DNA from: a virus
UHGV virus genome: UHGV-0194711
DNA: 35,641 nt
Reading direction: 5' to 3' (one strand)
The translations under genes were made by a program, and so were the position numbers. Below the pieces are notes generated by a model, which saw nothing but the letters and a program-made list of their open reading frames with translations, did not search any database and was not told the origin of the DNA. The number at the start of each line of letters is the position of its first letter. Positions within the stretch are counted from its first letter, which is position 1. This document shows positions 1-9,984 of this stretch, in pieces.

Positions 1-155
1 GATGCCTCCGGCAGGCTGGGCTGAGAGTCCGTTTGATAGTAGCAAGGCGCGATCGTTTTGTCCTGGGACAAATGAGAAATTGACTGTAAGGCAAGAGTTA
101 ACCGAAAAACGCCGTGGCGTCAGGCTGGCGGGAAAGGTATCAGAAAGCGAAAGTA

Positions 156-283
156 CAGAAACAAAAAAACCACCCGTAGGTGGTTTCACGACACTGCTTA
201 TTGCTTTGATTATTCTGTATTTCCCAATGGTACCCGGAGCGGGACTTGAACCCGCACAGCGCGAACGCCGAGGGATTTTAAAT
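156..283. repeat. Left attachment-site direct repeat (attL): copy of the tRNA-Leu 3' half plus the downstream terminator hairpin
   Basis: About 128 bp near-identical to 35491-35619 (a few mismatches and one indel around 210-220). Contains the hairpin ccacccgtaggtgg flanked by an A-run and 56 nt matching the tRNA 3' portion. Confidence 0.85.
228..283 (-). other. Displaced partial tRNA-Leu fragment (3' end through anticodon loop), not a complete tRNA
   Basis: Identical to the 3' 56 nt of the tRNA at the right end; sequence diverges at 284 (tggtggtgatt) so no D-arm or 5' acceptor strand is present. Confidence 0.8.
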
Positions 284-421
284 TGGTGGTGATTATTCTA
301 AATATCAAATAGATATGAAAAAAAACCGAACATACGCTAATAAACTAGCATCATGAAAACAATAAGTTACAGCAATGTTTTAGACTATCTTCTGACGCTT
401 ATCATACCTCAAATTCAATAT

Positions 422-661
422 TTATTCAGTCGCGCGGTACCACGATTGCCAGCGGTAGATATTCGTACGTAACTCCCGCACACACTCTGCTGACTGTGTA
501 TCCGCCAGCAGATCAGCGTCGCTATCTGCGCCAGCGTTACTTATCTTGCACGGTCGGTTCATCAAATCCGGGGATGGCGTTGGCCGCGTCGATTGCTCGT
601 TGGCGCAGCTGCACAGCAGCAGGATCAAACTGGCACACAGTACGATTCGGGTCATTGACAT
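422..661 (-). CDS. Rz1-like o-spanin (outer-membrane lipoprotein), overlapping the 3' end of Rz in another frame
   Basis: N-terminal signal-like segment with Cys (LILLLCSC), Pro-rich mature region (RPTPSPD), small size, overlapped position relative to Rz. Start could be M1 or M3. Confidence 0.55.
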   Translation of the reverse strand: MSMTRIVLCASLILLLCSCANEQSTRPTPSPDLMNRPCKISNAGADSDADLLADTQSAECVRELRTNIYRWQSWYRATE

Positions 662-896
662 ATTTCACCACATCACGATAAACGGTACGGTAAATCACTT
701 TGGCTTCGGCGTTCGCCGTCGCTGCTTTCTGCTCACCAGCGGCAACTGCCTTTTCCTGCTTCGGTAGCCTTTGTTTAGCCTGGCTGTTTACTTGCTCTGA
801 ATGTGCGTACCAGCCTTTCAGATACCCCGCCCAGTAAATCCCGGCGCATACCGCCAGCACGCCACCAACAATCACCAGTTTGGTTTTTCCGTTCAT
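537..896 (-). CDS. Rz-like i-spanin (inner-membrane spanin subunit)
   Basis: N-terminal transmembrane helix (KTKLVIVGGVLAVCAGIYWAGY) followed by charged coiled-coil-like region. Start ATG at 896 overlaps the endolysin stop (ATGA); the track ORF extends to 914. Confidence 0.65.
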   Translation of the reverse strand: MNGKTKLVIVGGVLAVCAGIYWAGYLKGWYAHSEQVNSQAKQRLPKQEKAVAAGEQKAATANAEAKVIYRTVYRDVVKYVNDPNRTVCQFDPAAVQLRQRAIDAANAIPGFDEPTVQDK

Positions 897-1429
897 TCGT
901 ACAGCCCCCAGCACGTCAAAGCGCTTTCCTGATCGCGGCGGTCAACCTGCCCGTAGCAGCCATTCTTCTGGCCTTTGGTCAGTCGGCAATCCCGGCCTCC
1001 GTCGAACACCCATCGCCGGATCTCCGCGCATGCACCTTTACGGTCGCCTGCGTTCAGCTTGCGATAGAACGTTGAGGGGAAGCACTTACCCGGCCCGATG
1101 TTGTACGGGCAGAATGAGGCTATGCCGACCTTCTGCGGCGGCGTCAAAGAAACGAGCACATTCTTTTCTACCCAGGCCAGCGCCTTATCACGCTCAATGG
1201 CGTTTACCTTCCTGCACTGTTCCTCAGTTGCTCTTTGGCCCTTAATGACACGCTTGCCATCTATAACGGTTACTCCGTGGCACAATGACCACACACCGCC
1301 GGGGTCAACAACGGCCACCAGCGCGTTACCTTCTTTTTCGCTGATAAACTGATCGAACAGTACCGGTGCAGATGCACCGGCGGCCAGAAGCGCCAGCATA
1401 GCGGCGCTGAACTTAGCTTTGTTGCTCAT
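893..1429 (-). CDS. SAR endolysin (T4-lysozyme-like muramidase with N-terminal signal-arrest-release domain), phage 21 R-like
   Basis: Start taken at internal MSNKAKF. Hydrophobic Gly/Ala-rich N-terminus ([18 protein letters not shown]), then E-x10-D-x5-S catalytic spacing and CHG and GACAEIRRW motifs resembling phage 21 / P1 SAR lysozymes. Confidence 0.8.
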
Positions 1430-1643
1430 AGTCCTGTGCCTTCCGCCGGTCGTCTTTGATTTTGAAATACAAATTAGTGAGGTAGGTAAGCAGCCCAAAA
1501 ACAATACTGGCTAGTACGCCAATAGCCGCCCACTGGCTGGGGCTTACCTTATCGAGAAGTTGCAGCAGCCAGTAGCTCCCGCTGACAGTGGATGTGATGT
1601 ACGACGTGCCAGCCGCCACATCCGGTAAATTCTTCATTCGCAT
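1413..1643 (-). CDS. Class II holin / pinholin (phage 21 S-like) with dual-start motif
   Basis: Protein MRMKNLP...[48 protein letters not shown] closely resembles S21 from memory. M1-R-M3-K dual start, two TM segments, overlaps endolysin start. Confidence 0.8.
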
Positions 1644-1699
1644 GCCTTACCCCCATGGGGATCACTATGTGGAATGATGCGAGGGTAAGGCGAAGCTAA

Positions 1700-1714
1700 G
1701 GTCGGAATCCTGAC
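1700..1714. promoter_or_regulatory. Copy A of recurring inverted-repeat motif GGTCGGAATCCTGAC, ~57 bp upstream of holin start
   Basis: One of four copies (1700, 4603, 6536, 17304) of a 15-16 bp conserved element, each immediately upstream of a late gene. Confidence 0.5.
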
Positions 1715-1725
1715 TAAATGAAATT

Positions 1726-1996
1726 CTATATTACGAGTTTGCTTTTAAGTGATTCCTCTGCCTCTTCAAGAGGGCTTCCAGACCCAGAGTAGACAAAAGA
1801 ATGGGTAAGCTCCCCACTGGAAAGACAACCATCAATGCTAACTTTAAATGAAACAGTCGCTGTTCCATTATTTAGCGATATTAACGATACAGCCTGGTAT
1901 TCAACCTCAATCGAAGTATCTTCTGGTGGCATCCATACACCTAGCGTTGGGTATGCTATAGATTTCCCTATAGTCTGCGTCACTCTGAAAGTCATA
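1726..1996 (-). CDS. Hypothetical protein (low-GC moron immediately downstream of tailspike)
   Basis: ORF with GAGG RBS 7 nt before ATG at 1996 (MTFRVTQTIGK...); AT-rich relative to surrounding genes; no recognisable motif. Confidence 0.5.
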
Positions 1997-2002
1997 TTTG
2001 CC

Positions 2003-4522
2003 TCATGAATTAAAAGGAACAACATAATCAAAAGTACACTGGAGAGTGAAATCAAAAGTACCAGCTGCTTGAGAATATATTTCTTGGGCTGACGATTTAA
2101 TAATCGTCATTTGATTTGTCCCAGCAGGAACAAGCGGCATAACTAAAACCCCTGTAGCCGTACTAAGAATTATGCTTCCTTTAGACCCACCCTCCTGTAT
2201 AGAAGCGGCTGTAAAAGGAAGACCACTAATTACTATGGCGCCCGCAGTGCTAACCAGTAAAGAGGTTGATCTGACCCTTATATCGCAACGAACAACATCA
2301 CCAAACCGACGGTAAATTCCAATAATGGATGATGGTATTACGCTTGCGCCGCCAATTGTAATAGTTGGTGCGAATGTGCCATAAAGATACTTAAACTGAG
2401 CAGCATTACCACCGGGAAAAGCTATTGGCGGCATATAGGCATCATTTCGATTAAAAACATACTTATCGGATAAATTTGTTCCGTTTAACTCCTGAAGACC
2501 GAAAAGACGATAGTTTGAATTATCTCCAAGCTTTCTTTGAGCAACTATATTCTCACCGGCACCGATTCTTGTGCCGTTAAATTCATTAACTGGGGCAGCC
2601 TGAACCGCGCCACCTTTTACAATATCAAGGGCGAAAATATTTCCTCTTGTTGCCATCGCTGGAAATGTTGAAAGAGATGGTTCGTAGGGATCAACATTAT
2701 TAACATTAAATCTATTTCCAGCAACATCACCAAGGCCATACTTGATGATTCCTACCCTTTCCAGTATAAGAGTCCTTATTTTACTGTTACCAACATATGA
2801 TTTAAATCCGTCAACGAATTGAGCAGAGTGGTAGAATGGCGTTCTTGGAGACCACAGCACTTTAGCCTCACCAATATTGCAATGCAATATCTCCCTTCCC
2901 GGAAGTGAAATAATAGTTCTTGCGCGCCCAGCTATACCTCTATAGGTATCAACTGGGTAAACCCCATTCTGCTGATTATTTGACAACCGACCACCGCTGG
3001 CCGTAGGCAAGCAGTTTGCAGACTTGAAAACATACGTATCAAACCAAGTGTCAAGAGCGGCATATGCTGGATGTGTCCAGTCCATGCCGGTATCACCATA
3101 ATAATGAAACTTGTCTACATGGTACGAATCATTCCATCCCGCCCGATGAATATCTGATGCCGGGTACGGCGGAAGGTACTGAGACGCGTATGCATGATTT
3201 CTCGTTAGCCAGCGCCCGCCAAAAACAGGGCCTGTAATATTATACCAATATAATGTCAGCCCAGTTTGCGCCAGAGAATCAGATCCTTGATAACAAGCAG
3301 GAATGGCACACCCTGAGTACATCATATTATTTTCTACACAGCGGTTTACAGTCCCGTCTACCCATTGCCCAATAAAGAATCCGCTAATCCTGAAATCAGA
3401 AAGGTGATACTTTATGTATTGATCTGGTCCGCTGTCACCTGCGATGTATAGACCCATGGAAGATGTATGATCCCATGGTCCCGCAGTTTTTGAAAAATTA
3501 CCAATAATCCCACAATTGTGTTGGTTTTCACCAACAATCATTGAATCATCATAAACACGCAGTGCTGCTTTTGCCTTAACTGGTATTTCAGGAGCAATAT
3601 TTGAATCACCGTTCCCTATCCACCCTGGGTATACAGTCCCATCGTCGAATGGCAAATTAAACTCTATCGGTGAAGATATGCACGGATACATTTTAGTTAA
3701 ATATACCGGAAGGTTATTAGCTTTTCCGTAATCTATAGCTGCCTGTAGAAATTTAGTTGCATCAGCAGTGATGCCGTGAATATATCTTTCACCATTAATC
3801 CTTATCATTTCAGGGGTTACGTATTTTATTGCATCTTCAACGGTGCCTCCAGTAAGAACCCCTATATGCCCGCTACCTGTCGGTTTGGCATACTCAATCA
3901 TTACATCTGCTGCACTTCCACTCGAAGGCAATACCATCAATGGATTGCCATTATTATCCATTGCAACGATTTTATTTTTTCGTTCTGCAATGGAAGGTAA
4001 CGGTGTGATGCTAGACTCCGGAACGCGTAGAGTACGAGCTAGATTAATTTTTCCATTTTCAATTACAAATTTTTTAGTAGCTGCATCCTGATCGTTAACT
4101 GGATCGGCCAGATTTGCTATCCGGTAGCCGTTAGCGTTGAAAGGTCCACCGCCGAACAGCGGGCGACTTAGGGCCACTCCGAGATAAATAAACGCGCGCT
4201 GAATAGCCATCCAGAGACGGTCAAAATCTTTGTTAACTGTATCGGCCAGCAGGTCGCCGTTGTCCTGGTAATCAGTGAGCCTGTAAGTCGGCGTTACACG
4301 TTCAAAAATGACTGTAGCGCCATTGGCCGGCGCGGTCAGAAAAGTAACTTCGCCACCGCCAGTATTACCCACACCAGACACTGTATAGCCGGACGTTACT
4401 TCGTTGCCGTTGATTGTGACCTGAATATCGCTGGCGCTGATCAGGTAAAACTCATAGGCAAAGACAGTCGTCAGCCCGTTGGCGGTATAGATGTTATAGG
4501 GTGTCTGGTTCGGTACCGACAT
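2003..4522 (-). CDS. Tailspike / tail fibre protein with T7 gp17-like N-terminal adaptor and divergent low-GC receptor-binding (likely depolymerase) body
   Basis: 839 aa. N-terminal ~150 aa carry the GYRIANLADPVNDQDAATKKFV motif, similar to T7 gp17 (GRRIVNLANAVDDRDAVPFGQL). The remainder is Gly/Asn/Tyr-rich with GC dropping markedly after ~nt 4100. Confidence 0.8.
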   Translation of the reverse strand: MSVPNQTPYNIYTANGLTTVFAYEFYLISASDIQVTINGNEVTSGYTVSGVGNTGGGEVTFLTAPANGATVIFERVTPTYRLTDYQDNGDLLADTVNKDFDRLWMAIQRAFIYLGVALSRPLFGGGPFNANGYRIANLADPVNDQDAATKKFVIENGKINLARTLRVPESSITPLPSIAERKNKIVAMDNNGNPLMVLPSSGSAADVMIEYAKPTGSGHIGVLTGGTVEDAIKYVTPEMIRINGERYIHGITADATKFLQAAIDYGKANNLPVYLTKMYPCISSPIEFNLPFDDGTVYPGWIGNGDSNIAPEIPVKAKAALRVYDDSMIVGENQHNCGIIGNFSKTAGPWDHTSSMGLYIAGDSGPDQYIKYHLSDFRISGFFIGQWVDGTVNRCVENNMMYSGCAIPACYQGSDSLAQTGLTLYWYNITGPVFGGRWLTRNHAYASQYLPPYPASDIHRAGWNDSYHVDKFHYYGDTGMDWTHPAYAALDTWFDTYVFKSANCLPTASGGRLSNNQQNGVYPVDTYRGIAGRARTIISLPGREILHCNIGEAKVLWSPRTPFYHSAQFVDGFKSYVGNSKIRTLILERVGIIKYGLGDVAGNRFNVNNVDPYEPSLSTFPAMATRGNIFALDIVKGGAVQAAPVNEFNGTRIGAGENIVAQRKLGDNSNYRLFGLQELNGTNLSDKYVFNRNDAYMPPIAFPGGNAAQFKYLYGTFAPTITIGGASVIPSSIIGIYRRFGDVVRCDIRVRSTSLLVSTAGAIVISGLPFTAASIQEGGSKGSIILSTATGVLVMPLVPAGTNQMTIIKSSAQEIYSQAAGTFDFTLQCTFDYVVPFNS

Positions 4523-4539
4523 ACGAGGAACTCCGGCGG

Positions 4540-6150
4540 CTAGTAATCTACGGCGACCATGTGATCGCCATCATTTGGTTGCCAATGTTCCCGCGCCTGT
4601 GCGGTCGGAATCCCGACCAATTTACCAATGCGCACTGGTGTTGAGCTGATTGCGCCAGAGCCAGAGTCGATAAAGTCATCTGGCTGATTAGTCAGCGCCG
4701 GGTTAAAGTCGCGCATCTGGTCATACATTGGGCCGTCGAGCACGTCGGTATGCGCCCAGAGGAAGCGCGACGACAGCGGCGCTTCGAATGCATCGAGGAT
4801 GCGCTTTTGTTTATTGGTCACGCTGAATTCTTCCCGTACGCCGCAGCCGGTACCCTTTAGTGCCTGAATCAGCAATTTCCCGGCAAAGCTGCCCGGGCCG
4901 TTCACCTCGACGCAGACCAGCGGGATCTGGTATTTAAGCACCAGCTCTTTAATCTGCATCACCTGACCGCCGGTGATTTTGTCGTTGTCGTCGAATTCCG
5001 CCAGTTCGCCCGTAAGCCCCTGGCAAACATGCCAGTACAGATGCCCGCGTGCGTCGGTGAAAATCAGAGAGAACGCCGAGGCGTCGGCCTTAACTTTGCC
5101 GGTGGCCACATCCCACCAGGCAACAGCACCAACAATTTGCGTCTGGCCAAGCCACATCGAGCAGGAGCGGTTCGCGTACCGGATTTCAGGCTGTACGTTG
5201 TATTCGCGTATGCGGTCGGGATCGAGACGAACCTCGCCAACCGGTTTACTGTGCAGCTGGTACTGGCTGTCCCATTCGTTAATTGTGCGAGTCTCGCGAC
5301 GGCGCTTTGTCATTTCCTCCGGAGTGAACCTTTCTGGCCATTCACAATCGGCGTAACAGTCAACCGTGGTGCCGGGAGCCTCGGCAAACTCGATACCGTC
5401 ATCGTTAAGACGATAATCAACACCTTCAACGAGCAGTCGCGCGCCAATGTGAATACCGACGAAAACATATTCCGGCCGGAACGGTAACGAGTAACGGCTC
5501 GCAGTGGCCTGTTTTTCCTCGATTCTAAATTCTTTACCGAATAGTTTGATGGTCAGACAGTCGGCGCCCATAGATTCAACCTCATCGTAAAGGCTATCGT
5601 GGGTATGCGGCGTGCCGATAAACAGCTTTCGCCCGCCGGGGACAAGAATGTGTGTCTGTTCACCGAGACGATAACGCAGCTTTTCCCGCGCCTCTGGCGT
5701 CTGGATATTGCGGGGTACTTCTACGTCATCGTTCTGGCATTCATCAGCGCGGGCCGAGGTAACGTTAGAGAGGATCCCCTTTGCGTACATGCTGCCGTTA
5801 CGCATATCCAGAGAGCCGTTAACCCACCACTGTTCAACGGTTCCCTGTCCGTCCGGTAGCATGCCTTTGGTCAGTGGGTGATTGCGTAAAACGTTCTGCG
5901 TATCGCGGCTGGTTTTGTACGCGGTGCCGTCAGCTTCAGACTGGTGAAGAATGCGGTACTGGCGGTTCTGGTAATATCGCCATGCGTTATACACCGCCAG
6001 AATGGTAGATTTACCAAAGCCACGAAAACAGCGAAGCACCGCGAGATCCCCGCGGTGTTCCAACCAGTGGCAGGCTCGATAATGGCAGTCGGGAACCTCC
6101 CACCCCATCCGCTCCGCCCATATGATGAAAAAGGCGACGAATGAAATCAT
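4540..6150 (-). CDS. Terminase large subunit (T7 gp19-like DNA maturase B)
   Basis: 536 aa. LRCFRGFGKSTILAV Walker-A region aligns with T7 gp19 LQAFRGIGKSFITCAF from memory. Size and position next to terS are consistent. Confidence 0.85.
   Translation of the reverse strand: MISFVAFFIIWAERMGWEVPDCHYRACHWLEHRGDLAVLRCFRGFGKSTILAVYNAWRYYQNRQYRILHQSEADGTAYKTSRDTQNVLRNHPLTKGMLPDGQGTVEQWWVNGSLDMRNGSMYAKGILSNVTSARADECQNDDVEVPRNIQTPEAREKLRYRLGEQTHILVPGGRKLFIGTPHTHDSLYDEVESMGADCLTIKLFGKEFRIEEKQATASRYSLPFRPEYVFVGIHIGARLLVEGVDYRLNDDGIEFAEAPGTTVDCYADCEWPERFTPEEMTKRRRETRTINEWDSQYQLHSKPVGEVRLDPDRIREYNVQPEIRYANRSCSMWLGQTQIVGAVAWWDVATGKVKADASAFSLIFTDARGHLYWHVCQGLTGELAEFDDNDKITGGQVMQIKELVLKYQIPLVCVEVNGPGSFAGKLLIQALKGTGCGVREEFSVTNKQKRILDAFEAPLSSRFLWAHTDVLDGPMYDQMRDFNPALTNQPDDFIDSGSGAISSTPVRIGKLVGIPTAQAREHWQPNDGDHMVAVDY
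4603..4618. promoter_or_regulatory. Copy B of recurring inverted-repeat motif GGTCGGAATCCCGACC, inside the 3' end of terL, ~80 bp upstream of tailspike start
   Basis: Perfect 6 bp stem / 4 nt loop palindrome; same core as copies A, C and D. Confidence 0.5.
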
Positions 6151-6488
6151 TTTTTCCGCTGTTGTATGCGTTCGATAACTTCCTGTGCTGCCCGTTCAGC
6201 CGCAGATACCTGTTGCCCCAGGCGGAATGCTTCATCGTCCGGATCCTCGCCGGGTTTAGGCGTCCCCCCGCGCGTATGCATGCCAATCAGCGAATGGACT
6301 TTTACCAGCAGCGTCAGCGATGCGGCCGCGTTCTTCTTATGCCAGTACCGATCACCGCGTTCCTGTTTAGTGTGCTTTGTGATTTCCTTCCCTGCCCCCG
6401 GCCAGTTATCCGGATCGGCTTCTTCCAGAACTACGTCGGTGAGCTTATCGCTAAGAGCAGTAAGGCGAGTTTTGTAATCTGAATGCAT
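6147..6488 (-). CDS. Candidate terminase small subunit (DNA maturase A)
   Basis: 113 aa charged protein immediately upstream of terL with ATGA stop/start overlap (translational coupling). Positional inference only. Confidence 0.45.
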   Translation of the reverse strand: MHSDYKTRLTALSDKLTDVVLEEADPDNWPGAGKEITKHTKQERGDRYWHKKNAAASLTLLVKVHSLIGMHTRGGTPKPGEDPDDEAFRLGQQVSAAERAAQEVIERIQQRKK

Positions 6489-6535
6489 AAAAAAGCCCCG
6501 TGTTTATCCATAGGGCTATGATGTGTCGGCTTAGA

Positions 6536-6550
6536 GGTCGGAATCCTGAC
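6536..6550. promoter_or_regulatory. Copy C of recurring inverted-repeat motif GGTCGGAATCCTGAC, ~48 bp upstream of candidate terS start
   Basis: Same 15 bp core as copy A, with matching flanks (tagtcaggattccgacct on the transcribed strand). Confidence 0.5.
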
Positions 6551-6641
6551 TATTTCTAATCTAATTATAAAATTGATCGCTGTATGGTTTTTTGTTAAAT
6601 GTTTCTTATACCTAACACTCAGCTAAAGGCGTTTATTTTTC

Positions 6642-7076
6642 ATGAAAAAAATTGGTCTAATTTCGATATTAGTAATGATCTCACATCCGGCATTCGCAGC
6701 AGATAAGTGTAAACCAAACTTAACTGAGTTTGATGTATGCGAACAGGCTCAGAAAATCGTCACTCAGGTACGCCCCAGACTGCCCTTAACGTTATCAGAA
6801 AACGTAATAATGAAAGATGTTTCTGCTGATGGAAACAAAATAATCGCGCAGGTAAGGCTAGGCGTAACCGAAGAAGAAATGCTGGCTACCGCTTCAGAGA
6901 CCCATACTTCAATCGACGTTGCTAAATCTCGAATGGATGAAATAACAAAAAATGGGTTATGCACGAATAAAAATCCACTGGGTTCATTCATTAGATTAGG
7001 TGGGGAGATGCAATATGTTTACACCTACCCCTCCGGAACATTCTTCAATGCAGTTACTGTTAGTTCGTGTAACTAG
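6642..7076 (+). CDS. Secreted/periplasmic hypothetical protein (signal peptide, four Cys), opposite-strand low-GC moron inside the virion module
   Basis: MKKIGLISILVMISHPAFA signal peptide with AFA-A cleavage-like site; ~40% GC; opposite strand to all flanking structural genes; promoter-like TTGATC-N16-TTAAAT upstream. Confidence 0.65.
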   Translation: MKKIGLISILVMISHPAFAADKCKPNLTEFDVCEQAQKIVTQVRPRLPLTLSENVIMKDVSADGNKIIAQVRLGVTEEEMLATASETHTSIDVAKSRMDEITKNGLCTNKNPLGSFIRLGGEMQYVYTYPSGTFFNAVTVSSCN

Positions 7077-7080
7077 GCTA

Positions 7081-9984
7081 TCAACGCATACCGGGATCGA
7101 CCTGGTTAATCAGCGGCGCGATCCAGAACAGGTTATTGCCCGGTAACAGCGTTCGCGCGCTATGCAGGACCCGGTCTCCAGCGTCGCCATTCAGCACGCC
7201 AGCGGTCACATCGGTTACAGTATCCAGCAGGCCAAAGGTTGGCCCCAGAGCAGAACCGATAAAGCCGCGGCTGGCATAACGGGATTGCGTACCGGTGCCG
7301 AGCAATGGCCCAAGTCCTATCATGCCGCCAGATGCCTTTTCCGCCATGTTGTTGTATTCCATCAGCGGGCCGAGGATACCCGAACGGTCGATACCCTCTA
7401 GTACCATCTTCTGCGGCGTCAAATCAACCTCGCGACCGTTAGCCGCCTGCTTAAGCGCATAGGTCAATGAGCCCAGGCCAATCTGGAAGGCGGTACCGTA
7501 ATAGAATTGCGCGGTACCTTCCTGCAGGCCACCGAGCGTCGCGCGGTTATAGGATGCCGTAGCAAAAGACTTAAACTGGAATACAGTTTTCCCCAGCGGG
7601 GTACTGGCCCATAGCGGCGTATCACCGATACCCGGCGTGATAACGGTATTGTTTACGTCTTTCAGTACCGCAGATTGCAGCAAGCCGGCGGCGTACTGGT
7701 CATCCCATTTTTCGAAATTGCCGATATGCCAGCCCTGAATGACTTCGCCGTGCTTCTGAAACTCTTTCTGGATGCGTTCGGCCATTTTGTCATTGATGCC
7801 GAGCTTAGCCAGACGTTTCGCCGGGAACGCACCTGACAAAATACCGTCTGAAGTAATCATGCCATTTACCGATTTGTTCATGTCGTCAAAGTGGCCCATC
7901 ATGGTCAGCTTGCCGAACACATCGGTAATGCGCTCCATGCCCGCTTCGATCGCAGTGGTGCGCGAAGAGCTATCCACCAGATCGCCCATCGTACGCGAGC
8001 GGGTTTGAAGAATAGTTTCCAGCCCTACAGCCATTTTCTTCTGCTCCGCCCGGCTGGCGAGGTAAGCCGGTGATCGAGTGATCAGCGCGCCATATCCACG
8101 CATGGTATTGCTGAAGCCGTTAACCATCATGCCGCGCGCCAGATCCGGAATAGCGGATACCGTCATGCCACCGAGTTTCGTTACAAAGTTGGCACTACGC
8201 AGGAAAGCACCGGCGCGAACGAAAAATGATGATGGATCATCCGGCATACCGTAGGTTCCAACGAGGCGATCGCGGAGCGCCAGAATATCGCGCAGGTCGG
8301 CTTCGCGCGCCTTCGCCAGCTTTTCCTGTTCTGCCGGGCGTAAACGCATCAGCGCGTCGTATTCGTCCTGGATGGCGGCAAGCTGCGAATCCAGCGATTT
8401 GTTGCCAAAGGTGCGGGTTAATTCGATCTCCGCTGAGGCTTCGCGGATATGACGCTGCAGGACGTAATTTGCATCGCTCTCCAGATAGTCTTTCATCAGA
8501 CGATCGGGAACACTCAACGTACGCGATTTAGTGCTACCCGGCGCTTTCACCATAAAGACGTTGGCGAACTCCTGCGGAATTTTGGCCCCGACAATACGGT
8601 TAATAGTGGTATCGGCGGCGATTTCGGCATCTTCGCGGGACATGGTTTTCTCACCGCGTGACCACCAGTCAACCAGCATATTGCGGAATTTATCGCGCTC
8701 GCTAACGATTTTCCCCACCTTGTACACGCGCGGGAAATAGCTGGTCTGCCCCATCGCTTTCAATTCGGCATCCGGCGGGAGTAAGCCCAGTTCCTGCTGG
8801 GCTGTCTTCACGCGGTTAATGACCGTACGCATTGCCTGCGCCGCTTCCTGCACTTTCGCATTAACGTGCACGTCGCCGTTACGCAGCGCCTCACCAACCT
8901 GTTCACGGAAGGCCGTATAACCCAGATCGCCGCCCTCGGCTTTATACTGGGTGTATGCCTGCTTATTAGCAGTAACGACGGCCGCCTCTTCGCGGCGCCA
9001 GCCACGTACGCGCGTCTCGGCAGCTACCGGAGTTTCGATACCGCGCAGGTTGCCTTCCAGCGTGAAGTTATTCTCCGCCAGCTCCAGCGCTGTCCGGCGC
9101 GCTTCTTTTGATGGGGATTCCATCAGGCGGGTGATCGGCGTCAGATAGCTACCGGCCTTTTTAGCCAGCTTGCCGAGCGGGCCGCCGGACACTGGCGTGA
9201 GGTCTTCCAGCGTCGCCTCGCGAATACGCATAGCGCCGACGCTGCCACCGTTCGGTAAAGTATCCGCCAGGGCGTCGGCTGCGTTATTAATCGTTGGCGA
9301 GGCATTCATATTATCGAGCGCCTCGGCTACTTCCCGGGTTGCCGCATTTCTTACCGATGGGGTGATCATAGCGCCAGCAGTAGCAAATACACCGCTGAGA
9401 AGTGCGCCGGCTGTGATATGCGCGGCACTCTCCCTGGCTGTTCTGGTATACTGTTCGTTGTTGAGCACAACCTCGCTAAGCGCGGTACCAGCAGCACCGA
9501 TAGCAACCTGCGAACCAATGCGCGCAACCAGAGTTCCCTGGGCGCCGGGGATGAACATCGAAGCCACCGTGACAGGATCGATAGCCCCAGCAGCGATACT
9601 GGCTAAAGTTCCCTCTGTGCCAGCCTCGGACAGTACACGGCGGTCTTCGTTTTCATCGTCAATCTGGTTTTTAATCCAGGCTGTTTCTTCTGGTGACTGA
9701 GAATCTGCGAAAGCAGATCCCCATTGCTCATAGCCGTGAATTTCATTCTTATCAGCGTAAGGGTTATACCCTTCAGCCGGTTCAAATTGTTTTGCAGGCC
9801 GAAAAATCCCTGCTAGTAGGTTATTCTGTCGGAATGCAGCGCTCCATACGGACGGTTGTGGCGGTTGAGGTTCCGGGTTTGCACCTTCAGGTAAATCAAT
9901 ATCGAACCCTACTGGGGCATCCAGGGCGCTACCAGCAGGTATATAACCATTACTGAATTCGCTGGGTGTGGGGTAAATTGGCAT
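7081..9984 (-). CDS. Internal virion (core/ejection) protein, large (T7 gp16-position)
   Basis: 967 aa, Ala/Gly-rich, last large gene of the internal-protein block before terminase. Positional analogy to T7 gp15/gp16. Confidence 0.6.
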   Translation of the reverse strand: MPIYPTPSEFSNGYIPAGSALDAPVGFDIDLPEGANPEPQPPQPSVWSAAFRQNNLLAGIFRPAKQFEPAEGYNPYADKNEIHGYEQWGSAFADSQSPEETAWIKNQIDDENEDRRVLSEAGTEGTLASIAAGAIDPVTVASMFIPGAQGTLVARIGSQVAIGAAGTALSEVVLNNEQYTRTARESAAHITAGALLSGVFATAGAMITPSVRNAATREVAEALDNMNASPTINNAADALADTLPNGGSVGAMRIREATLEDLTPVSGGPLGKLAKKAGSYLTPITRLMESPSKEARRTALELAENNFTLEGNLRGIETPVAAETRVRGWRREEAAVVTANKQAYTQYKAEGGDLGYTAFREQVGEALRNGDVHVNAKVQEAAQAMRTVINRVKTAQQELGLLPPDAELKAMGQTSYFPRVYKVGKIVSERDKFRNMLVDWWSRGEKTMSREDAEIAADTTINRIVGAKIPQEFANVFMVKAPGSTKSRTLSVPDRLMKDYLESDANYVLQRHIREASAEIELTRTFGNKSLDSQLAAIQDEYDALMRLRPAEQEKLAKAREADLRDILALRDRLVGTYGMPDDPSSFFVRAGAFLRSANFVTKLGGMTVSAIPDLARGMMVNGFSNTMRGYGALITRSPAYLASRAEQKKMAVGLETILQTRSRTMGDLVDSSSRTTAIEAGMERITDVFGKLTMMGHFDDMNKSVNGMITSDGILSGAFPAKRLAKLGINDKMAERIQKEFQKHGEVIQGWHIGNFEKWDDQYAAGLLQSAVLKDVNNTVITPGIGDTPLWASTPLGKTVFQFKSFATASYNRATLGGLQEGTAQFYYGTAFQIGLGSLTYALKQAANGREVDLTPQKMVLEGIDRSGILGPLMEYNNMAEKASGGMIGLGPLLGTGTQSRYASRGFIGSALGPTFGLLDTVTDVTAGVLNGDAGDRVLHSARTLLPGNNLFWIAPLINQVDPGMR

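Follow-up and report, generated by a model that had tools for sequence, protein, structure and literature searches.

In two papers, the receptor-binding proteins (RBPs) of Klebsiella phages are described as a conserved N-terminal scaffold (PF03906 anchor) with swapped distal modules, which are exchanged across virion morphotypes (bioRxiv 10.64898/2026.05.12.724579; PMC13123978). The modular exchange of tailspike bodies on gp17-type anchors, including exchange across morphotypes, is already established. Two of the enzymes closest to the present case, S1-2 of phage K64-1 and KN1dep, are experimentally active, KN4 being equivalent to KL124 and KN1 to KL101/KL120/KL170 (DepoCatalog, PMC13385381). 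Both belong to structural Class 4A, with a short beta-helix of 9-10 rungs, alpha-helices between the rungs and a double C-terminal domain (PMC13385381). Here, we analyze a tailspike gene and the small gene directly downstream of it in the virus genome UHGV-0194711, a stretch of 35,641 nucleotides referred to below as the window. Besides its late operon, the window carries, farther upstream, T7-type genes for nozzle, capsid and portal as well as a DnaB helicase gene and an integrase gene, and it is therefore a complete T7-like podovirus prophage of the integrative kind, from Klebsiella (pneumoniae complex). Taken as a whole, the locus is best explained by a recombinant tailspike, very probably one in which an imported capsule-depolymerase body, together with the small gene, was placed on the prophage's own anchor.

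A low-GC cassette bounded on both sides and shared with an unrelated prophage

The tailspike open reading frame (ORF) occupies positions 2003-4522 of the window on the minus strand and encodes 839 amino acids (aa), its stop codon being included in these coordinates. We divided the locus as follows.

4064..4522, minus strand: T7 gp17-type anchor (PF03906), codons 1-153, with backbone-like composition
3890..4036, minus strand: neck or linker, aa 163-211, with the motif LRVPES..LP....RKNKI.A.D..G.P..VLP.SGSA.DVMI.
2006..3889, minus strand: predicted receptor-binding/enzymatic body, aa 212-839, with a beta-helix core, inserted helices and C-terminal domains; low GC
1726..1995, minus strand: 89-aa gene (phrog_7836), ATG with GAGG 5 nt upstream, the GAGG overlapping the tailspike stop codon
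1714..1725, minus strand: distal cassette boundary, intergenic, before the holin gene; homology to related backbones resumes at 1723, 1716 or 1714, and homology to the unrelated prophage L001 stops at 1767

A preliminary description of this locus, made from the sequence only, had proposed that the first ~150 codons of the tailspike gene are GC-typical and that the remainder, like the small gene, is AT-richer. Both parts of this proposal were borne out. Codons 1-150 have a GC content of 0.518 and a GC content at third codon positions (GC3) of 0.553, codons 151-839 have 0.421 and 0.316, and the 89-aa gene has 0.418 and 0.341, compared with 0.545 +/- 0.025 and 0.597 +/- 0.055 (GC3 minimum 0.486) for the 18 other genes of the window. 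A maximum-likelihood change point was placed at codon 134 by GC3 and at codon 148 by all positions. The GC3 statistic of the real gene was not equalled in any of 2000 codon permutations (p<0.0005; p = 0.008 for total GC), and the uniform composition that had been named beforehand as speaking against a mosaic gene was not found.

The domain structure of the protein follows the same division. PHROG profiles split the tailspike into an N-terminal part matched by phrog_1640 and other tail families (aa 1-~250 only) and a body matched by phrog_22560 (aa 202-839 only). In a search of 5.8 billion proteins, homologues fell into two classes. The first comprises body-only matches of 64-77% identity with different N-termini; the second comprises anchor-only matches over the first 25-35% of the protein, 72-90% identical, among them many Klebsiella prophage "tail fiber" proteins with different bodies, which carry Pfam beta-helix, PF27114, PF25692 or PF12708 domains. 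Comparison with tailspikes of other phages separated the two parts, and it also linked the body to characterized Klebsiella capsule depolymerases, as described below.

The anchor is a member of Pfam family PF03906 (Phage_T7_tail), in agreement with the gp17-like motif noted earlier: aa 9-153 align with model positions 8-148 of 157 at 43.7 bits, above the gathering score of 25.2 (E 3e-11). N-terminal matches in the PDB were Dpo31/Dpo36 (E 2e-12) and a tail fiber gp9 (E 4e-4). Anchor and neck start, that is, the first ~170 codons, would be the prophage lineage's own and are predicted to dock the trimer onto the adaptor/nozzle of the T7-like tail. The only relatives found in a contig scan of genomes were anchor relatives, in Pluralibacter, Enterobacter, Trabulsiella, Serratia, Sodalis, Scandinavium and Rosenbergiella; body and small gene occurred in none of these anchor relatives from other genera.

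At the DNA level, both boundaries of the cassette can be read from prophages that share the backbone. The sister prophage L002 belongs to the same family and occupies the same chromosomal site, with chromosomal flanks that are 98.5-98.7% identical, and its tailspike is labelled Klebsiella pneumoniae by NCBI. Its DNA aligns with positions 6555-3942 (84.5%) and 1723-3 (85%) of the window and with nothing in between, while the first 150 aa of its tailspike anchor are 97% identical. In relatives from Pluralibacter, Enterobacter and Trabulsiella, the DNA alignment ends at 4016-4071 and resumes at 1714-1716 (1716 in L010; 1714 in L011 and L012). The complementary pattern was found in L001, a prophage with an epsilon15-like anchor and different lysis genes, which aligns with positions 3982-1767 only, at 80% identity, and therefore shares the body and the small gene. 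The composition of L001 mirrors that of the window, with a GC content of 0.56-0.58 in the backbone, 0.416 in the body and 0.355 in the small gene. Body and small gene are thus replaced as a block between collinear prophages and held in common as a block with an unrelated one, in line with the horizontally swapped receptor-binding/depolymerase cassette of the preliminary description. The segment from codon ~181 to the stop codon, together with the 89-aa gene, would represent a horizontally acquired low-GC cassette of ~2.2 kb (nt ~3980-1724).

Sliding identity profiles located the proximal joint within the neck. Identity between the window and L002 is 76-100% up to codon ~170 and then drops to ~40%, whereas identity to L001 is ~50% up to codon 180 and then rises to 73-91%. 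Homology breaks at codon ~171-194 (nt ~4010-3942), and 30-nt identity profiles narrow the joint to codons ~171-181 (nt ~3980-4012). The break earlier placed at codon ~150 is therefore accurate for composition (codon ~134-150), but the recombination joint lies ~20-45 codons further 3', at ~171-194. The neck motif, in the form LRVPES..LP....R.NKI.A....G.P..VLP.SGSA.DV, is common to all six aligned tailspikes and is kept in the solved KN1 depolymerase and in the alignment to PDB 9m4d. The cassette would have entered by homologous crossover inside this motif, which is common to many enterobacterial tailspikes, the second joint lying in the spacer that precedes the holin gene. Within the gene, AT content peaks at codons 151-193 (window 3943-4072; GC 0.357, GC3 0.233); codons 151 to ~170 are nonetheless 76-86% identical to L002. 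This suggests that the neck, by composition, groups with the cassettes and not with the anchor, and that older exchanges had their joint nearer codon 150. We infer that the neck belongs to the exchangeable pool and provided the homologous substrate for the crossover.

The small downstream gene

The preliminary description had reported a small low-GC gene of 90 aa at 1726-1996 downstream of the tailspike. Its low GC and its place in the cassette hold; its extent is 1726-1995, corresponding to 89 aa. It is a real, conserved gene, because its ribosome-binding site lies on the tailspike stop codon, its product matches phrog_7836 (E 3.5e-20, 87/92 profile positions), its AlphaFold2 (AF2) model is confident (pLDDT 84.6; four antiparallel strands and a C-terminal helix) and its substitutions indicate purifying selection (nonsynonymous, pN, 0.28-0.31; synonymous, pS, 0.70-0.80). 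Translation is probably coupled to that of the tailspike. Profile match, the C-terminal motif YSGxGxPLxEAExxL and the position directly 3' of a tailspike gene all place the protein in the phrog_7836 family.

An exhaustive profile search of 1.84 billion representatives retrieved 176 clusters, nearly all of them stand-alone proteins of 85-130 aa. There was no informative fusion among the 176, the few long matches being repetitive proteins that match over short stretches only. Homologues in loci L001-L005, L009 and L020-L026 lie 6-13 nt downstream of tailspike genes, and in 10/10 contexts that were read the gene begins at this distance from the stop of a tailspike gene of the same orientation. 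The contexts comprise the lytic Drulisvirus JKT5, a Webervirus siphovirus, Erwinia phage Pavtok (after an "EPS depolymerase"), a Taipeivirus (after a homologue of the body studied here), lambda-like prophages (next to gpJ), P2-like prophages (after a Tail_spike_N protein), a further myovirus-like contig, and L001 and L002. The gene is thus not a one-off neighbor but a member of a conserved tailspike-adjacent family.

Body and small protein also travel together between morphotypes. L002 (podovirus) and L023/L025 (siphovirus) share 95% identity in the body and 91% in the small protein; the corresponding values are 75% and 72% for JKT5 (podovirus) and L020 (P2-like myovirus), and ~77-90% and 59% for the window and L001. 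Next to unrelated bodies, the small proteins are still 30-50% identical, and the motif YSGxGxPLxEAExxL is nearly invariant. Similarity of the small proteins correlates weakly with that of the C-terminal 150 aa of the tailspikes (Spearman 0.40), a value that is confounded by linkage and that we did not use as evidence.

The small gene may tentatively be regarded as encoding an accessory partner of the tailspike, a helper in assembly or attachment whose synthesis keeps pace with that of the tailspike. More speculatively, the phrog_7836 protein might be a dedicated, undescribed trans-acting partner of depolymerase tailspikes, for example a trimerization/assembly helper or a virion-attachment factor, that moves with the body among Klebsiella and Erwinia phages of the podo-, sipho- and myovirus types. 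We found no sequence or fold similarity between the small protein and known Tfa proteins (Tfa/gpG, Caudo_TAP). Targeted literature searches retrieved no described role for the gene, and the searched text of the Klebsiella RBP-modularity papers makes no mention of a co-transferred small downstream gene (bioRxiv 10.64898/2026.05.12.724579; PMC13123978).

Five of nine homologues of the body, namely those of JY917, L028, Koku, K64-1 (S1-2) and the SU10-like phage L027, are not followed by the small gene, which argues against strict functional dependence. This absence would fit a gene that is functionally untied to the tailspike and hitchhikes in a recombination-prone slot, as an accessory gene for host takeover, anti-defense or exclusion. 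The same holds for the activity of recombinant S1-2 alone (PMC13385381), for the unrelated cargo, such as an acyltransferase and other small ORFs, in the tailspike-to-holin slot of relatives, and for the faster divergence of the small gene from L001 (61-63% nucleotide identity, compared with 71-91% for the body). A free-floating gene, however, would hardly hold its position 6-13 nt past the tailspike stop in all ten contexts, across podo-, sipho- and myoviruses, lytic as well as temperate. In addition, the gene has no PADLOC match and is under purifying selection, and the family was never fused to, nor distant from, a tailspike in the sampled loci. We slightly favor the accessory partner over hitchhiking, which is the main rival and only somewhat less likely.

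In P2-like Klebsiella prophages (L020-L022, 2762-5276), the phrog_7836 gene follows a 741-aa Tail_spike_N protein and lies between baseplate gpI and the short tail fiber. Their small protein (P0153) occurs in 1697 blocks of the public collection, and no recognizable gpG-type chaperone gene was present ahead of the sheath gene in these three prophages. The slot between tailspike and holin holds other cargo in relatives of the window (L010 8242-8541, L011 8500-9117, L012 8375-9385, L002 8816-9288). In L012 this is a 336-aa acyltransferase-like ORF, possibly an O-antigen- or capsule-modifying conversion gene, and in other loci the slot carries unrelated ORFs of ~60-100 aa. The phrog_7836 gene was present in none of the non-Klebsiella relatives examined.

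The body as a predicted capsule depolymerase

The body is 55% identical to the tailspike of Klebsiella phage JY917, 53% to K64-1 S1-2 (aa 217-839), 51% to Taipeivirus tailspikes and 31% to the KN1-1/IME321 proteins, and its match to phrog_22560 has an E-value of 2.5e-229. S1-2 is named "Depolymerase, capsule KN4-specific" in UniRef. The PDB entry 9m4c ("Depolymerase, capsule KN1-specific") and the related 9m4d/e aligned to aa 79-834 (E 3e-92 to 3e-94); a literature search found no paper on 9m4c. Homology to the characterized KN1/KN4-type (Class 4A) depolymerases thus extends over the full length of the body. The AF2 monomer reached a pLDDT of ~90 over aa 231-600 and 710-839. It has the Class 4A fold, with strand-rich rungs at aa ~270-600, interrupting helices at 256-268 and 485-504, and a beta-sandwich C-terminus at 672-839. 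The top Foldseek match in the PDB was the Det7 tailspike gp208 (6f7k; E 1e-9, probability 1.0), and further matches were the K2-2 TSP, the Phi92 colanidase, and Acinetobacter and Sf6 tailspikes. The AF2 model, these matches and the full-length homology to S1-2 and KN1dep support the beta-helix depolymerase fold that had been anticipated.

We infer that the body is a capsule depolymerase of the KN1/KN4 type (Class 4A) built on a right-handed beta-helix, its activity and its assembly into a trimer being predictions. It would most likely bind and cleave one Klebsiella capsule type, so that the cassette would set the K-type host range of the phage, and a KL124-like target is possible. Two conserved blocks, DDGT.YP.W and WFDTY.FKSAN, lie in the catalytic core, and the acidic positions D254, D294 and D491 within them are, by conservation, active-site candidates.

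The preliminary description had left the target of the cassette as capsule or O antigen. Capsule (K antigen) is the likely target, since the characterized homologues are all Klebsiella capsule depolymerases (S1-2 for KN4/KL124; KN1dep/Dp42 for KL101/120/170), and O antigen is less likely. It is improbable that the body targets a non-capsule glycan, be it O antigen or another exopolysaccharide, or that it binds without cleaving. In favor of this alternative, the specificity is deduced by homology, the anchor-type relatives epsilon15 and phiV10 target O antigen, and the body has no Pfam pectate-lyase or beta-helix match. However, besides the nature of the characterized homologues, the homology spans the whole catalytic core with both conserved blocks, and the hosts are Klebsiella, in which capsule is the primary receptor (PMC13385381).

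The absence of any swap, with the low GC resulting from amino-acid or codon constraints of beta-helix proteins or from drift in a vertically inherited gene, can be given hardly any weight: tailspike bodies are often AT-richer than their own genomes, and differences at first and second codon positions (GC1, GC2) are small beside GC3, but the drop is chiefly one of GC3 (0.55 to 0.32), i.e., of synonymous sites, sister prophages integrated at this chromosomal site have, between the two breakpoints, bodies unrelated to this one, the unrelated L001 has the same body and small gene at 80% nucleotide identity, and the L002 body has a GC content of 0.50, so that bodies in this backbone are not generally low in GC. 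Homologous bodies in lytic phages match the GC of their own genome, from 0.32 in the jumbo phage K64-1 to 0.50 in a Webervirus. That the cassette still has 0.42, unameliorated toward the 0.55 of the backbone, thus suggests that it was imported fairly recently from a lower-GC phage.

Several points weigh against an imported depolymerase cassette. The direction and timing of the transfer are beyond proof, and part of the low GC could be due to such bodies being AT-rich in general. Composition changes at codon ~134-150 but homology at ~171-194, a mismatch that implies either repeated exchange in the past or a neck drawn from the cassette pool, and the small gene is missing after five of the nine body homologues. 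On the structural side, the AF2 monomer is poor at the N-terminus (pLDDT <50 for aa 1-230), the Foldseek TM-scores are low (0.15-0.2, with the full-length monomer as query) and 9m4c was not among the Foldseek results. Finally, 53% identity to the nearest characterized enzyme is too low for transferring its specificity.

Prophage setting and comparison with known systems

The tailspike and the small gene belong to the late operon, which reads in transcription order as follows.

7081-9984, minus strand: internal virion protein gene, 967 aa
6147-6488, minus strand: 113-aa gene
4540-6150, minus strand: large terminase (TerL)
2003-4522, minus strand: tailspike, 839 aa
1726-1995, minus strand: 89-aa gene
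1413-1643, minus strand: holin, followed by endolysin, Rz and Rz1

The window contains a T7-like tail and virion module with a PF12236 portal, a PF19821 capsid, a PF25675 nozzle, an SLT-containing internal virion protein and a PF22530 TerL. Megablast of positions 1600-4700 against deposited phages gave no DNA-level match, so that none of these phages is a close relative; in complete E. coli genomes the sole match (78%) covers TerL and the anchor. Public assemblies do contain the sequence. One ENA contig is 99.98% identical to the window over 12 kb, and the 5.35-Mb chromosome CP070088.1, with prophage locus L019, is 99.5% identical across positions 3-6551. An identical tailspike protein occurs in 51 public-collection blocks, CP070088.1 among them. 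Upstream of ~6551, the CP070088.1 prophage (L019 1-7972) carries internal-virion genes of 651, 442, 832 and 97 aa, compared with 903 and 967 aa in the window; ~6551 thus marks another mosaic breakpoint, the second in this lineage of prophages.

A 144-aa ORF (window 6642-7076, plus strand) runs opposite to the late operon between the internal-virion gene and the 113-aa gene. It has a GC content of 0.405 and a signal-peptide-like N-terminus (MKKIGLISILVMISHPAFA), and it matches phrog_8772 (function unknown; E 1e-67). Its position looks like a second moron or variable slot, because a different gene is found there in L002 (108 aa) and in L019 (216 aa). NCBIfam gave no match for the tailspike, 89-aa, 113-aa or 144-aa genes.

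Positions 1-420 comprise the prophage end and the chromosomal junction. The integration site adjoins DHDPS, yecA-like, tyrP-like and ferritin genes and is common to L002, L018 and L019. Within 1-700, ARAGORN found no tRNA and Rfam no convincing family, the best candidate being STnc130 at a sub-threshold 24.9 bits (gathering score 55). The endolysin ORF as listed mechanically (893-1504, TTG start at 1504) overlaps the holin gene by ~90 nt. In identical public contigs, gene callers pick a later start that yields 178 aa and a short overlap; the listed start is probably too far upstream. A promoter and terminator scan of 1300-4800 remained at chance level.

The range of Klebsiella capsule types open to the phage would be set by the tailspike body, and such enzymes are catalogued as anti-capsule agents and typing reagents. 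To our knowledge, S1-2 is the only KN4/KL124 enzyme known, and a relative diverged to 53% could add a new K-type to the catalogue or be a second KL124 enzyme. As a natural experiment the locus is unusually clean: both joints are present, a different cassette occupies the sister prophage at the shared site, and an unrelated prophage has this cassette as well. For engineering, it suggests a cut at the neck motif (aa ~165-210), and the small downstream gene may need to be moved with the body. If this gene does encode a dedicated partner, the transferable host-range unit would be a two-gene module that extends beyond the distal part of the tailspike. The phrog_7836 family is widespread and unannotated; a conserved, co-transferred small gene is the part of this locus that is absent from the literature searched, and it is worth an experiment, although not yet a discovery.

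With respect to the backbone, the nearest deposited relatives are the temperate T7-like podoviruses YeP4, YeP5 and YeP6 of Yersinia, with a TerL that is 80% identical at the aa level and a tailspike anchor that is 54% identical to aa 1-225. Unlike the window, they have another host genus and other tailspike bodies, and they show no DNA-level match. K64-1 S1-2 resembles the body most closely among characterized enzymes: it is 53% identical over aa ~217-839, collinear to the C-terminus and of the same structural class, with a beta-helix, inserted alpha-helices and a double C-terminal domain. It differs in its jumbo-phage branching anchor (gp17-type here), in its GC content (0.32 compared with 0.42) and in the absence of a small gene after it. 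KN1dep/Dp42 of phages KN1-1/IME321 likewise come from T7-like podoviruses and join a gp17-type anchor and a neck to a Class 4A body, and both the neck motif and the core blocks are kept. However, they are only ~31% identical, their phages are lytic, and they are active on KL101/KL120/KL170.

The tailspike fits exactly the modular RBP exchange described in the published work. The differences are that those studies cover RBPs only, and that the short hot spots of the preprint lie within the first 100 aa, whereas the joint here lies at aa ~171-194. The small gene, in turn, is reminiscent of trans-acting tail-fiber chaperones (lambda Tfa, P2 gpG, T4 gp38/gp57A) and of the chaperone domain that endosialidases carry intramolecularly, and above all of the pair of fiber and Tfa, in that it lies directly 3' of a receptor-binding gene and travels with the distal module.

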